From assembly GCA_043817075.1 (NCBI GenBank), contig JBDRHG010000009.1, positions 1-64,000 of the forward strand: DNA of 64,000 nt. Direction: 5' to 3'. The DNA is from an archaeon. Its GTDB lineage: Archaea; Nanobdellota; Nanobdellia; Woesearchaeales; JAADFO01. The position numbers are program-made. Shown piece after piece: positions 15,001 through 21,000 of the stretch. Each line of letters opens with the position of its first letter. The first letter of the stretch is position 1.

Positions 15001-18000
15001 GCCCCGCACCTGCTATCACCGCCTTGAATGAGAAGGCTGAGAGGATGCGCTCGAGAAGCTCAGGCGTACGATGGGCCGAGCATACGAAGAATCGATAGGA
15101 GAATTCCGGATCCTGTGATCTGATCCTGTCAAGCGAATCACAGACGGCCTTATAGCTGGGTTCGTCTGAGGCGCTACCGTATAGTACCAGGACATCAATC
15201 TGTGTCTTGTCATCAGATTCAACCATGTTCATCACCTGTCCCTGGGAACCAGAACGAGTGTATTTATGTGTTGCGGTTTCATATTGACTGGATATCTGGA
15301 CCGTCTCAGACGCGAGGTAGCAGTCAGGATACAATCCATAATCGGAGGATTAGGTCAGAATCAGATGATCATGTCTTTTTCTTCTTGTCGAGATCGATGA
15401 CTTCAGGGACCTTATTGACCGCAAACGTCGAGATCACCTCATCGACGCTCCGGGTGATCTCGTGGGCTATATGCGCTCGGTCTCTCTTGCCTTGTTTCGT
15501 TTCTGATGCGATGGCCTCTAATGCCGCCGACTCCATTCCTTGAGGAAAGCCAGATGTTGAACGAGTGGATAGTATTGAGTCGTCGTGGCCGTCCTGTTTG
15601 TCCATCGATTCGTAATCCTTGCTTTGATCCACAGTCTCATCCAGATCGGAAGATTCTTCTTCCTCGGATTCCTCCTCAGGAGATAGCGCGTTGTAGAGCT
15701 CTCCAGTTCCACCATCTTGGTCCTTGGATAGGTAATCCTGTCCCGGCGTATGCTCGTCACGGGACTGATAATCTTTCGAATGAGTGCTGTCAGCAGAATG
15801 ATACCGTTCATCATGGGGATTGTCGTGTATGTCGCTACCGTGGTACATCTGCAAGCCTCCGAGAAAGGCAATCCGGTATACGTCTCTTCAAGTATTTAAA
15901 TGTTACGTATGGTGCCACCATACAATAGTAAAAATAGCATATTTTGGCCCATATGGCCCTCAGTCCCGACACGTTTAAATATCTCGTTTCCAAAGATACC
16001 CATATGTTGCTGTCTTTCTTCCCGACAGAGGTGAGTAAGCGTCAGATCGAAGGACGGGAAGTCGTCTTCATATACGGACGCTCTGATCAAGGTAAAAAGG
16101 TTTGTGTGCTCGACCGAAAATTCCACCCCTCATTCTATGTGCTTCCAAAAGCGCCTGAGAACGTGGAAAATCTCCTGGCCTGGTGTCAAAGCCGGATAGT
16201 CCAGACTGACATAGGAGGAGTAAAGGCGATGGCCTGTGGTCTTGTTCTCAAGAAGCTTCTGGGAGCGGATGTCGTGGCCATCAGGGTGGTCACGAAAAAT
16301 CTCATGGAAGAATCGGCCCTAGCGAAAGCCTTCTCGCAGAACCCCCAGATCCAAGGGCTCGCTGAACATGACCTTGATTTCCTCGCCAGATACACGTTGG
16401 CCCGGAGCATCACTCCGTTCAAGCTCATGCCGGTCGAAGGAAACTATATCAATTTCCGCAGCAAAGTGACCGTGTTCGAGGCAGAAACGTTCGGTGAGGT
16501 CGGCACTGAGCAGCTCAAGACTCCGAGCCTGTTATCATTCATGGTAGAGCTCGAGACCGGCAAGAAGACTGAGGAGATCCGCGGATGCGTCCATCCTGCC
16601 TTGGAGATCGTGCCTGTCGAGGAACGCAGATTCACATCAGCAGAATCCCTTATCAGGGACATCCTCATATTCGACGGAAACACATTTGCGTCCTGCAGAC
16701 AGATCGCGTTGTCACAGGCCCAAGAAGGTGTTGAGCAATCAGCCAGAGATGCAGAACGTGACACCATCAGATGCTTCGGGCAGATGGCCAGCGACATCAA
16801 ACCGGATTTTCTGCTCGGGTTCGACTCTCATATCCGGGACCTCTCCATCATCGCCAGACGTGCCGAAGGACTGGGCATTAAACTCTCGATAGGTCTCGAC
16901 CATAGCGGAGTGCTCATCAACCGCCACATCGAACAGACTGCACGTATACGCGGAATGGGCCACATAGCAGCGACGCAGATCGTGAACCTTCTCGTCGGCG
17001 CGACTCCGTACTCGATCGAGGAAGCCTTGACATTCATATCAGACAAGCGGAGCAGGGTCGCGGCAAGCGGTTTTCCCGCATGGTTGAAAGAGACCACCAC
17101 CCCGCATGATGGGGAGACCCTCATCAAACGTCTCCATGCATTAGGCCTATTGACCATCAATAATCTCGTCGAGCTCTCAGTCATCACCAAAATCTTCCCG
17201 AACCATCTCTTAACCAATTCGCTCACCAGGAACATCGACCATTTCATCGCTTCGCAGCAAGACACCGACGCGCTCGTCCCCGGCCGACATACCGGCACAA
17301 GTACGGCCATGACGCCTGCTAAACCTTTGAATTGGGCAGACATCATCTTCCATGATGAAGAGCTCCCTGACAGTGCGCTCGCAGGCATCGTCAGGAAGGG
17401 ATATTGCATGAGACCTCGTCATCTCCAAGCGGCTCTGATAGCCAAAGAGAACATATCATTTGAGACCGTGCGATGCGATTGCTGCCGGAACGGACGCTCT
17501 GATGAAGAGCTATGGATATGCGAGAACACCAGAGGCACGATCGCGTCGCTGGTAGGAAGCCTCATCTCTAGACGGGCGCGTATCGTCGAGATGCTCCGCG
17601 CCATGAAGGAGAGCCCACTGCTCGAAGCCCGTCTTTTCGCCCTCGACCACGTGCTCGATTTCCTGCCAGGGTATGTCGCCAATGACAGGGCCAAATTCAA
17701 GGTACCAGAGGCAACCGCTTTGATACGGAAGAGGACATCAGACATATTGGAGACCGCCACCCTCAAGATGACACATCGTGGTGCGACCATAAAGACCGCT
17801 GACAATGAGCATATCATCGCGACGATGGACAGGGGAGGCAGGACAGACCTGGACGAATCATTGGTCGATACATTGCCCGAGGGTGCCAACTGGAAAATCG
17901 AAGGTCCGTTTCCGAATATGATATATTTCCTCAGGGACCCGGACGGGAATCGTCCGCGTCTGGCCTTCGTGGCCATCAGCGAAGAGAGCATGATGATCGA

Positions 18001-21000
18001 ACGCTGGGACAACCGGATGAGATCAATCCGCCTACCTCTGCTACAGCGTCTGACCACCCAGATGCTCACTATGGCGATCAGCGTCAAGGATAAGAGCGAT
18101 ATCAAGGCGCATCTTGATAGCATCGTCGATTTCGGAAAGGATATGATGATGGCTCTCCGAGACGGCAGGATCGATAGAGAGGCCGCGATCCTCCTGGCCA
18201 GGCTCCGCAAGGACCTTGATGAGTACGAGAATGCGCTTTTCCATGTAGAGGCTGCGCGGCGCTTGGTAGGTCAGGGCTACGAAGTCATACGTGGCATGAT
18301 CATCCCGTACATAGTCGGCGCCGGACTGGGTCATACAAGAGAACGCGTGCAGACATACTTCGAGCCGGTCGACGAAGGTCTCGACACAGAATACTACCTC
18401 ACCACCTATCTGTTCCCGATGCTCGAGGAGATCTTCGAACCCCTCGGTATCGATATGGGCGAGATGGCAGGAGAGAGCCAGCTCCCTCTCGACGCATTCC
18501 TCAAACGGCGCCGAAAGAAGAGTCACCGATAACAATATAGATAAAAGATAAAGAAAATAGAGGGGAAAAAGAAAGGTTGACGCTACTCGCCATCAAATTC
18601 GTTCGATTCTTCAAGGAGCTCTTGAGCGTTCTTCTCACGTTGCAATGTTCCGTCCTTGCTACAGTAAGGACAACGTGCAGGTGCAGTCTCCTTCTCAAGA
18701 CGGTAACTGCATTTAGTGCAGACGTAACGTGTCATGCGGTCTCCTTTGGCATTGCCATTTATATATTTTTTCTTGTCGAACGGCTCAATGCGCTAGTCCG
18801 CCTTTGGCCCTGATGCTCGGACGGGTCTTCTCGGATCCGATCCCTTTCTTCCTCAGACCCCTACTGGACTTGCCGGACGAAGTGAGGCCACGGTAGACAC
18901 GTTTCTTGTGCTGCTTTTCAGCAATCCAATTGAGGTCCTTGTCTGCTAAGATGGAAGGATGAGAAGGATCGACCATGATGATCTCGTACCAGGCATGTCT
19001 TCCGTCCTTGGCGATCTCGTAGCTATTGAGCACCTCAGCGTTAGGATAATGCTTCTGGACTCGCTGTTCAGCGATCTGTTGGTAGGATTGGCTGACGATC
19101 TTGGTACGTCTGCTGGTCTTAGGCCTGCGTCGACCTATTGATTCCTGGGGCCTCACTCTGCCGCCACGTATGACACGTTGGCGGACGACGAAAACGCCTT
19201 GTTTTGCCTTATAGCCAAGAGAACGAGCACGATCGAGACGGGTGGGCCGTTCGATACGCTCAGATGCAGGAGATCTGCGTAACCGGATGAGACGTTCTCG
19301 ATAGACAATCCCAAGATTCTTCTTCGGTTGCTTGTACAGCTCCCGGATGTATTTGTATAATCCCATTGTGTTGGCCTCCATTGGATGGTATCATTCGAAG
19401 ATTCAGGCAAGCCATTGCCCACATCTCTTCATCGTCGACGATAACCAGGAGCCCTTTATAAAGGTTACGGCTGGGTCGGGGAAGCTTCTCGGTGCCCGAC
19501 ATAAACTTTTTATAGCCTGCGCGACACCGACAACACCATGGCCCAAGGAACGATTGATAGCGAGCATATGGGTGAATTCCTCAGGAATATGCACTCCCTC
19601 GTCGACGTGGCGACCCATCTAGAGATACCGCTTGAATTGGATCAGCCACCAAAGAACATCATCATCGCCGGCGTCGGGGGCTCAGCCTTGCCCGGCAACA
19701 TCATCTCGACAATCTATGACCTTCCGCTGCCATTTCTGACGGTCAGCGATTACGATCTTCCTGCCCTTGCAGGGAAGGATTCACTCATCTTCATCATATC
19801 TCATTCAGGGAATACTGAGGAGACCATCGCCTTGTTCCGTCAGGCCAGCAAGCTCACCAAGAACATCGTCACCATCTCGTCAGGCGGCAAGCTCCAAGAG
19901 ATGGCCAAGATCGGGGATGTCGCGCACCTCAAGGTCCCTGGAGACATGCAACCGAGGATGAGCTATCTGACATTGACCATCCCCATCATACGTTTCCTCT
20001 CAAAGCTCGGCCTCGTCGAGGATCCGGGCCCTGACCTCAAAGAGGTCGCCAAAGCCTTGGCCCGAGAGGAATATGAAGAGATGGGCAAGGATTTCGCCAA
20101 GAAGCTAGAGGGGCGAACACCTCTCATCTATGCTTCGAGAAAGCTCGCCTGTGTAGCCAAGAAGTGGAAGATCAACTTCAATGAGAATGCCAAGACCCAT
20201 GCCTTTTTCAACCTCTTCCCTGAATTCAATCACAATGAGATAAACGGATTCATCCAGCCAAAAGGGCCTTTCGCAGCCCTCATCCTCCGAGATGATGACG
20301 AGCACATCAGGGTGAAGAAGCGTATGCGTATCGTCAAGGAGATGATCAAGGAACAGGACACTCCCGTCTACGAGGTCATGGTCAGAGGTGTCTCCCCTCT
20401 AGTAAAGGTCTTCTCCGCCATCTATATAGGCGATTGGATAAGCTATTACCTCGCCTTAGAGAACGGGGTGAATCCTTCAGGCGTACCGTTCATCGAGGAC
20501 TTGAAAAAGCGTCTTTCAACCGTCTGAGAGGTTTCTACCTTTTTTCTTTTACTATCTCAATACCATGTTTACAATGCGAAGGCTCATGGTTCATGGATTC
20601 TTCACCTTCTGCCTTTTTTAAGCCGCATATATAAAGAGCACGGAACCAAATCGTCACCACTCCACAATAGAAAAACTTATAAATAAATGCAACCATTACA
20701 TAGTAGTTACCCCGATGGGAATCGGGAATCCACTCCCATCTGGATGAATAAAGCACAACAGATGTGAACAAACGATGTTTGACGACGACGACGAGTTTTC
20801 CGTGCTATCGGAGATCGAAGAGGGCAAGAAGAGGAAGGACTTCCGTGCCAACGTCAATAGGAAGAAGCTCTCTCCGTTCGAGATGGACGAGATATTCCTC
20901 GATGATTGAACAATAGGCCGTGCTACCTGCGTTGCAACAGGCAGATACGTTTCTGCATACTGCGATGCACCTCGATGAGCGCGACGGTCTCGCACGAGAT

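Follow-up and report, generated by a model that had tools for sequence, protein, structure and literature searches.

In the window, a 64,000-nucleotide stretch of a Woesearchaeales contig, the forward strand carries a gene for a family B DNA polymerase homolog, P0001. The gene converges with that for ribosomal protein L15e and is flanked upstream by a divergent acidic open reading frame (ORF) without a Pfam match and, beyond it, a purE-like gene (Table 1). We refer to the genome as G000 and to the family to which P0001 belongs as f1. The ORF of the preliminary description is present, but its 859-aa version starts too early. ATG 16004 is the likely start because homologs begin there, the database copy of the protein has 842 aa, and a TATA-like box (TTTAAATA), which we take to match the archaeal consensus, falls inside the longer frame. 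A sigma-70 promoter scan, with a model unsuited to archaea, found nothing. For window positions 15000-19500, no RNA holder was listed, which has no bearing on expression.

Table 1. Features of the P0001 locus (window coordinates).
Feature	Position	Strand	Remarks
purE-like gene	14402..15334	-	Upstream neighbor, common to G001 (synteny marker)
TATA-like box TTTAAATA	15974..15981	+	Likely promoter, from sequence; 30 nt before ATG 16004
P0001, catalytically dead full-length PolB3	16004..18532	+	842 aa
N-terminal domain	16004..16528	+	43% identity between G000 and G001, the highest of any domain (catalytic palm half, 15%)
G-x-x-I-N-F-[RK]-S-[KR]-V-x-V hairpin	16439..16483	+	Nearly invariant in four f1 dead proteins
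Degenerate exonuclease motifs	16547..16840	+	ExoI = ELET (182-185); ExoII D279 kept
Motif A remnant	17411..17431	+	Catalytic Asp replaced by Arg470 (sequence alignment)
CxCC...C cysteine cluster (491-494, 506)	17474..17521	+	Retained by most B3, dead as well as active
Motif B remnant	17645..17671	+	D548 and D552 in place of Lys and Asn
Motif C remnant TADNEH	17795..17812	+	D600 preserves the first Asp; E602 stands in place of the essential second Asp
PIP box QLPLDAFL (826-833)	18479..18502	+	Predicted docking site for the PCNA of this genome (motif, model)
Basic tail behind PIP box	18503..18529	+	In G000, G001 and G003
Ribosomal protein L15e	18785..19381	-	Convergent neighbor, common to G003 (synteny marker)

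A PolB3 homolog with altered catalytic motifs

Over its full length, P0001 is most similar to archaeal PolB3 (E 1e-52, vs 2e-6 for PolB2), and its best sequence matches in the PDB are the PolB of Thermococcales (E 1e-24). The AlphaFold2 model (pLDDT 80) has the PolB3 of P. calidifontis (5mdn) as its top Foldseek match (TM 0.72/0.79) and comprises N-terminal, exonuclease, palm, fingers and thumb domains, with a PIP box at the C-terminus. P0001 is a PolB3 by descent, with a full predicted PolB fold, that scores under the Pfam and NCBIfam cut-offs. Motif A, DFRSLYP in PolB3, reads RPRHLQA; motif B (KxxxNSxYG) reads DHVLDFLPG; YSDTDS of motif C has been replaced by TADNEH and KKKYA, the KxY motif, by RLAFV; beyond the ExoI/ExoII region, ExoIII is absent. 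By alignment, P0001 is devoid of both metal-binding aspartates and of the dNTP-binding Lys and Asn needed for DNA synthesis, and R470, E602, motif B, KxY and ExoIII all speak against an active family B polymerase. The earlier statement that every motif is lost holds for A, B, C and ExoIII; D600, D279 and ELET remain.

These remnants could be taken to indicate residual exonuclease activity, or residual or rearranged catalysis relying on a substitute Asp as in PolB2, which was once called inactive and later found active (PMC7544198). Both metal Asp are retained in G165 and in four f26 proteins. We consider such activity very unlikely given that the palm contains no invariant new acidic residue among f1 proteins, conservation within f1 is lowest in the palm half with motif C (11-17% identity), and the ExoI acids are missing from G001 and G003.

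As previously described, the genome encodes an intact PolII-type B7 at C4:221896 (NCBIfam DNA polymerase II score 791, cut-off 570 bits), whose GWN ExoII motif fits the B7/PolII-like group, and a separate PolB2-like gene on contig C26, in agreement with the claim that P0001 is unrelated to PolB2; PolD DP2 is present as well. The C-terminal end of B7 proteins is a PIP-like tail. The assignment of P0001 as a positional ortholog of PolB3 is borne out by the L15e neighbor shared with G003 and by purE shared with G001, indirectly in the case of G000. CorA links the dead-B3 locus of G003 to G063 and to the active locus of G055, and thioredoxin reductase, NYN or IleRS neighbors, all presumably correctly named from their sequences, tie other dead loci to active B3 loci. 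Within flanks of about 1.5 kb, no conserved partner gene was found at dead loci.

B3 and B7 across the order

B7 is present in 178 of 401 genomes of the same order. Among these 178, 135 yielded no B3, 23 from 15 families carry a dead one, and the rest have an eroded (6), polymerase-intact (13) or unscorable (1) B3, whereas all 109 scorable B3 of B7-negative genomes keep both aspartates. Among the genomes read, dead B3 is restricted to B7 carriers (23 of the 43 that have B3 vs 0 of 109), and apparent loss of B3 is the usual outcome with B7. The relationship originally noticed in 33 genomes is thereby extended, and the individual B3 states were reproduced (dead in G001, G003 and G024; intact in G011, G021, G005 and G023; eroded in G028). 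Phylogenetically independent pairs scored for "B3 damaged or not found" pointed the same way in 7.5 cases and the opposite way in 0 (median p 0.016); tests limited to B3-bearing genomes were not significant (median p 0.06 and 0.125). One family displays reciprocal-looking sorting, in which B7 was probably lost and an active B3 kept.

Several dead B3 are annotated as "hypothetical" and the group lies below family cut-offs, so that surveys based on catalytic domains would miss them. Conversely, a pattern search flagged second PolB copies of G416, G418 and G432 as dead, and alignment shows that these keep the polymerase motifs. A search around the genus of G079 gave no genomes beyond the four already in the set.

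Dead B3 apparently arose repeatedly, as had been proposed. A single clade of dead-B3 hosts is rejected (AU p 0.0023), the four best active matches of the dead G384 protein come from its own family, and the first matches of G289 and G066 are their neighbors in the RNAP tree. The B3 gene tree clusters most dead proteins (SH 0.996), which we read as probable long-branch attraction; because dead proteins attract each other, this tree is unusable for counting origins, and the RNAP tree was employed instead. B7 itself was reported in Woesearchaeota and Pacearchaeota as a PolII-like clade nested in bacterial G1, for which vertical inheritance was proposed (PMC7544198); in our B7 trees, two host clades are rejected (AU p 0.009 and 0.0004), which points to some lateral movement of B7.

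Purifying selection and the retained parts

The only unsaturated dead pair, G033/G140, which lies outside f1, has a dN/dS of 0.052 (0.04-0.07) at dS 0.77, and the B7 of the same genomes has 0.050. Maximum likelihood estimates of omega are 0.049 for f1, including P0001, 0.042 for f31 and 0.017 for f77, each fit being far better than omega = 1, although at 24-34% protein identity such values are biased downward by protein-guided alignment. Identity between G000 and G001 is 0.49/0.57/0.31 at the three codon positions. Close relatives of the G000 and G001 genes were sought in two metagenome scans without success, and a protein search with P0001 returned relatives at 24% identity only; f1 therefore has no unsaturated dN/dS. 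Dead-B3 frames are open across whole families, past synonymous saturation, and among simulated neutral copies 1/300 was still open at d = 0.1 and 0/300 at d = 0.39. With unbroken frames and dN/dS far from 1, dead B3 were rejected as pseudogenes. The view of a replacement caught in progress does not do justice to the dead genes: they are old, and the purifying selection on them is strong.

These observations bear on the possibility of slow decay without a specific function, where selection would just keep the product folded and harmless until deletion. The continuum from intact through eroded, dead and truncated to undetected B3 is compatible with such decay, and the residues kept across dead lineages are, in our own reading, largely structural-looking. 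We nevertheless regard it as unlikely: omega is about 0.05, similar to that of active B7, the frames persist, loss of the gene or of its promoter would be an easier route than the upkeep of 640-840 codons, and the PIP motif at the surface has stayed conserved next to a diverging thumb.

Of the 23 dead proteins, 17 retain this PIP box, among them all four of f77, although the thumb there is down to 26-55% identity. The box also occurs in 7 other proteins of the protein library that lack the motifs. The model of P0001 with PCNA scored 0.77 (best control 0.00), beyond a mark reached by 116/157 solved complexes and 2/215 mismatched pairs, with a predicted interface at residues 823-834, at least 78% of contacts agreeing between runs, and a partner pLDDT of at least 54. 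The PIP box of PolB and PCNA form a textbook pair, and memory of solved complexes may have contributed to this score.

The second retained part is the N-terminal domain, the least relaxed domain in three of four dead lineages (f1, f77 and f30); in f31, conservation is highest in the exonuclease domain. Relative to RNAP, palm and fingers evolve 4-10 times as fast in dead pairs vs 1.3-2.1 times in active pairs; for the N-terminal domain, the corresponding values are 2.8-4.8 in the dead f77 and f30 and 1.9-3.6 in active B3. This conservation might suggest that dead B3 persists in order to sense uracil or hypoxanthine in the template via the N-terminal pocket, all the more as 75-88% of 16 dead representatives retain the Glu/Asp pair of positions E111/D113. 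The same pair is present in B7, however, and the equivalents of the pocket residues Y7, P90 and V93 (Tgo numbering as we presume it), conserved in 63, 65 and 52 of about 76 active B3, are variable among dead proteins and replaced by K, L and E in P0001. Uracil sensing is accordingly rejected for P0001 and seems hardly credible for dead B3 in general.

We favor, with a probability of roughly 0.6, the interpretation that in P0001 an ancestral PolB3 became a pseudo-polymerase that is maintained by selection, likely serving as a structural protein that is docked on PCNA and has no catalytic part, with DNA synthesis likely left to B7. Acquired B7 would have made B3 catalysis redundant beside PolD, after which some lineages would have dropped B7, others B3, and others again would have retained B3 for a contact involving its PIP box and N-terminal domain. 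Retention of the PIP box and the PCNA model support such a putative structural or scaffold role for dead B3, which would have been taken up once B7 took over catalysis. The role would be dispensable in most lineages, since B3 was not found in 135 of the 178 B7 carriers.

Some dead B3 fit a structural role poorly. Six of the 23 have no PIP box, the f1 N-terminal domain evolves at 4.7-6.8 times the RNAP rate, above active B3, the f31 protein has shrunk to about 645 aa, that of G289 is truncated before the thumb, and no conserved partner gene was found in the flanks of about 1.5 kb at dead loci.

A rival view, in which dead B3 serves specifically as an inactive companion of B7 or of the replisome (PolD, MCM/GINS), appears rather improbable. 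It would account for the occurrence of dead B3 only alongside B7 among the genomes read, the whole predicted fold and the family-specific hairpin in the N-terminal domain, and the essential inactive module of Pol epsilon (PMC7544198) is a precedent. Yet B7 works without detectable B3 in those 135 genomes and has its own PIP-like tail, and independent dead lineages share no new motif.

Comparison with known polymerases

P0001 resembles archaeal PolB3 (Tgo, Pfu, KOD and 5mdn) in domain order, predicted fold, PIP box and locus, and differs in the loss of motifs A, B, C and ExoIII and in falling below family cut-offs. The literature searched contains no description of such a dead PolB3, and the available part of PMC7544198 does not mention B3 decay in B7 carriers. 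Dead B3 provide a separation-of-function experiment that nature has replicated, and it concerns the archaeal family B polymerase with the widest distribution: the parts retained when catalysis is dispensable, namely the PIP box, the N-terminal domain and the cysteine cluster, hint at the other jobs of PolB3.

PolB2 (G2) is likewise a family B polymerase whose active sites are altered, and it was for a long time described as inactivated (PMC4104785 and PMC7544198). Another Asp has been proposed in place of the missing one. In contrast to P0001, which derives from B3 and has lost more, PolB2 retains motif A and one motif C Asp and has reported lesion-bypass activity. P0001 was rejected as a PolB2: it has no GITDS-type motif C, matches B2 only at E 2e-6, and neighbors L15e, the acidic ORF and purE rather than forming an operon with inactivated RadA and arCOG07300.

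The C-terminal module of Pol epsilon is also a whole PolB fold without catalysis beside an active polymerase (PMC7544198), but it is fused and essential in yeast, whereas dead B3 stand alone, evolved repeatedly and were not found in most B7 carriers. It is conceivable, albeit doubtful, that Woesearchaeales repeatedly evolved a Pol-epsilon-like split in which the imported bacterial PolII catalyzes and the native PolB3 is an inactive structural subunit of the replisome; if true, this would expose a non-catalytic PolB3 function normally hidden by catalysis. With all stages in one order, dead B3 provide living intermediates for the origin of inactive modules like that of Pol epsilon.

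A B3-derived protein lacking key catalytic residues

The gene lies in one long open reading frame. Its start is likely the ATG listed in the table, since homologs start there, the publicly deposited protein has 842 aa and a presumed TATA-like element is found at 15974-15981; the resulting 842-aa protein is denoted P0001. GC content by codon position (0.57/0.40/0.65) is like that of the adjoining genes. A Pfam search returned PolB matches below threshold only, the closest solved structures by sequence are Thermococcales PolB (E 1e-24), and the AF2 model (pLDDT 80, pTM 0.80) resembles P. 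calidifontis PolB3 (B3) across the full length (TM 0.72/0.79). Among 10 related dead proteins whose source label was looked up, three are labeled Candidatus Woesearchaeota and one DPANN. De novo purine genes, present as a neighboring cluster, are reportedly uncommon among DPANN archaea.

Features of the window in and around the dead polymerase gene
Feature	Position	Strand	Remarks
Long open reading frame	15944-18532	+	
Likely start ATG	16004	+	
Presumed TATA-like element	15974-15981		TTTAAATA
Basic tail after the PIP box	18503-18529		Common to G000 (this genome), G001 and G003; not in the other dead proteins listed
Very acidic ORF, 161 aa	15369-15854	-	Divergent to the polymerase gene across a short AT-rich gap; no Pfam match; no counterpart at other B3 loci examined
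Purine biosynthesis cluster	9648-15334	-	PurM-, PurB-, PurC- and PurE-family genes; iron-containing alcohol dehydrogenase

Aligned to 75 intact relatives, P0001 carries R470 in place of the motif A Asp, D548 and D552 in place of the motif B Lys and Asn, and TADNEH as motif C, where E602 takes the place of the second Asp; RLAFV stands in place of KKKYA, and ExoIII is missing. Given the established two-metal mechanism, DNA synthesis by a protein of this sequence is very unlikely. D600, D279 and an ExoI-like ELET are still present and might be taken for residual catalysis, a reading of the dead proteins that we find improbable. The genome also encodes an intact PolII-type polymerase (B7), PCNA, the PolD subunit DP2 with an intact DCDGDE motif, and a PolB2-like gene (L002, contig C26). 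The ORF directly upstream of the latter, near the contig edge, is presumably integrase-like, and the PolB2-like gene is possibly on a mobile element.

Distribution and states of B3 and B7 in the order

The survey took in 401 genomes from the order, each 85% complete or more and selected out of a larger group (G005 and G006 fall below this mark and outside the counts), using a B3 profile and B7 searches at E 1e-100; twelve unpublished genomes are counted only in the tallies of 401, 223 and 209. B7 was found in 178 of the 401. A separate B3 was evident at first pass in 37 of these carriers; the remaining 141 were re-searched with a profile built from eroded proteins, and reading 20 candidate regions brought in six more B3, for a total of 43. 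With these queries, no B3 was found in 135 of the 178, some of which incomplete bins or extreme erosion could conceal. At least one essential metal Asp is gone from 23 of the 43, spread over 15 families (hereafter dead). Six keep the readable Asp with motif B damaged (G002, whose motif C falls off the contig, G165, G028, G196, G242 and G276), in 13 the polymerase motifs that could be read are intact, with the exonuclease eroded in several, and one (G062) is an N-terminal fragment; the states in G031, G032, G066, G139 and G289 were judged by eye. The most eroded B3 seen, in G031 (L137:540-2966), is an 809-aa open frame scoring 66-86 bits against B3 profiles.

B7 was not matched in 223 genomes, from which 12 without any match, G116 (a PolII-type protein below the B7 threshold used) and G256 (a B2-like protein only) were left out, giving 209. 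We read B3 in 112 of them, a set that takes in most of the lowest scorers, and dropped G120 (intein-like insertion) and the fragments in G378 and G404; both Asp are kept in all 109 B3 with both sites readable. The 97 unread B3 match at E about 1e-293 or better, except in three unpublished genomes.

Several side observations concern PolB diversity. In the G120 protein (L083), as in several library proteins 1160-1290 aa long, B3 carries an insertion at or near motif C that is consistent with an intein. The G399 bin, without B7, contains a pair of intact B3 genes (L100, L101), from either a duplication or a bin mixture. Most of 106 genomes from other orders of the class have one PolB locus scoring in the B3 or B7 range, and the two look largely mutually exclusive there too; four low-scoring PolB read contain a GWN motif. 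In three of these orders' genomes lacking B7 (G418, L358; G416, L359; G432, L360), a second PolB clade accompanies a normal B3, with intact polymerase motifs (YLDTDG), ExoI and ExoIII lost, 51-57% mutual identity and about 28% identity to B3.

Repeated origin of dead B3 and the history of B7

In the B3 gene tree, most dead proteins are drawn together (SH 0.996), a pattern that a single origin could also produce. In an RNA polymerase (RNAP) tree of 121 chosen genomes, dead-B3 hosts are scattered among lineages with active B3, and at least 14 changes are required under working labels that treat G002 and G165 as dead and leave out G220. A topology test with 25 of these genomes rejects a single clade for 12 dead-B3 hosts (AU p 0.0023, LG+G4). 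The four best matches of dead G384 B3 among 77 active B3 all belong to its own family, and dead G289 and G066 B3 first match their own RNAP-tree neighbors; for the other dead proteins, P0001 included, best matches among active B3 are uninformative. Neighbor genes in common link dead loci to B3 loci. In independent pairs that differ in B7, a B3 that is damaged or not found goes with B7 in 7.5 cases, with none opposite (median p 0.016); limited to B3-bearing genomes, the counts of 5 to 0 and 4.5 to 0 are not significant.

B7 trees track several families, yet reject two host clades, and B7 has therefore probably been transferred between lineages. Within f119, all B7 copies fall into one clade and three family members read have an active B3 without a B7 match, which suggests that B7 can be lost as well. 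In G384 (L289/L323, C15:781-3777), PCNA is encoded about 400 bp downstream of the B7 gene, in the same orientation.

Constraint on dead B3 and its possible role

The dead B3 of G033 and G140 (92% identity) have dN/dS 0.052 (0.04-0.07) at dS 0.77, next to 0.050 for their B7; in the other six dead pairs compared, synonymous sites are saturated and frames still open. Maximum likelihood omega, rough owing to saturation and protein-guided alignment, is 0.049 (G000/G001/G003), 0.042 (f31) and 0.017 (f77) in dead B3 and 0.09-0.11 in two active trios. Identity between G000 and G001 is 0.49/0.57/0.31 at codon positions 1/2/3, and in neutral simulation the frame was almost always closed by d=0.1. In dead pairs, palm and fingers evolve 4-10 times as fast as RNAP, versus 1.3-2.1 times in active pairs. 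Constraint on dead B3 is relaxed but still present; the open frames and low dN/dS make slow decay without function unlikely.

The N-terminal domain, usually the most variable in active pairs, ranks with the best-conserved domains when dead proteins are paired within f1, f77 or f30, with f31 as the exception. The uracil pocket positions of P0001 are replaced, and we regard uracil sensing as very improbable. The PCNA-binding PIP box is kept in 17 of 23 dead B3 and occurs in seven further motif-less proteins from a screen of 148 library proteins. Residues 823-834 of P0001 are modeled docking on the PCNA of the same genome with a score of 0.77 (best control 0.00; contact agreement 78% or more, partner pLDDT 54 or higher). 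Of 157 solved complexes, 116 also pass the mark it passes, as do 2 of 215 mismatched pairs; the pair being a textbook one, passing the mark indicates likeness rather than binding.

According to PMC13136892, T. kodakarensis, which has PolD, can do without PolB; the enzyme helps lagging-strand synthesis and Okazaki maturation and, when defective, may do more damage than its deletion. B7 has a PIP-like tail at its C-terminus and could assume this catalytic job. After such a takeover B3 would usually be lost; a retained B3 has shed primer- and nucleotide-binding residues while holding the fold, PIP box and N-terminal domain. We favor a non-catalytic, clamp-docked role for retained dead B3, at a probability of about 0.6. 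The company of B7 would also suit an inactive protein dedicated to partnering B7 or the replisome, which we consider rather unlikely. No conserved partner gene was found near dead B3 in the flanks compared.

No report of dead PolB3 in B7 carriers appeared in the literature searched, which excluded subscription papers, figures and full supplements, and the accessible portions of PMC7544198, PMC4104785 and PMC12680538 do not mention it. B7 in Woesearchaeota (PMC7544198) and inactivated PolB2 (PMC4104785) are already covered in those portions, and inactive PolB modules as such are known; what is notable in dead B3 is repeated origin, dependence on B7 and measured selection.
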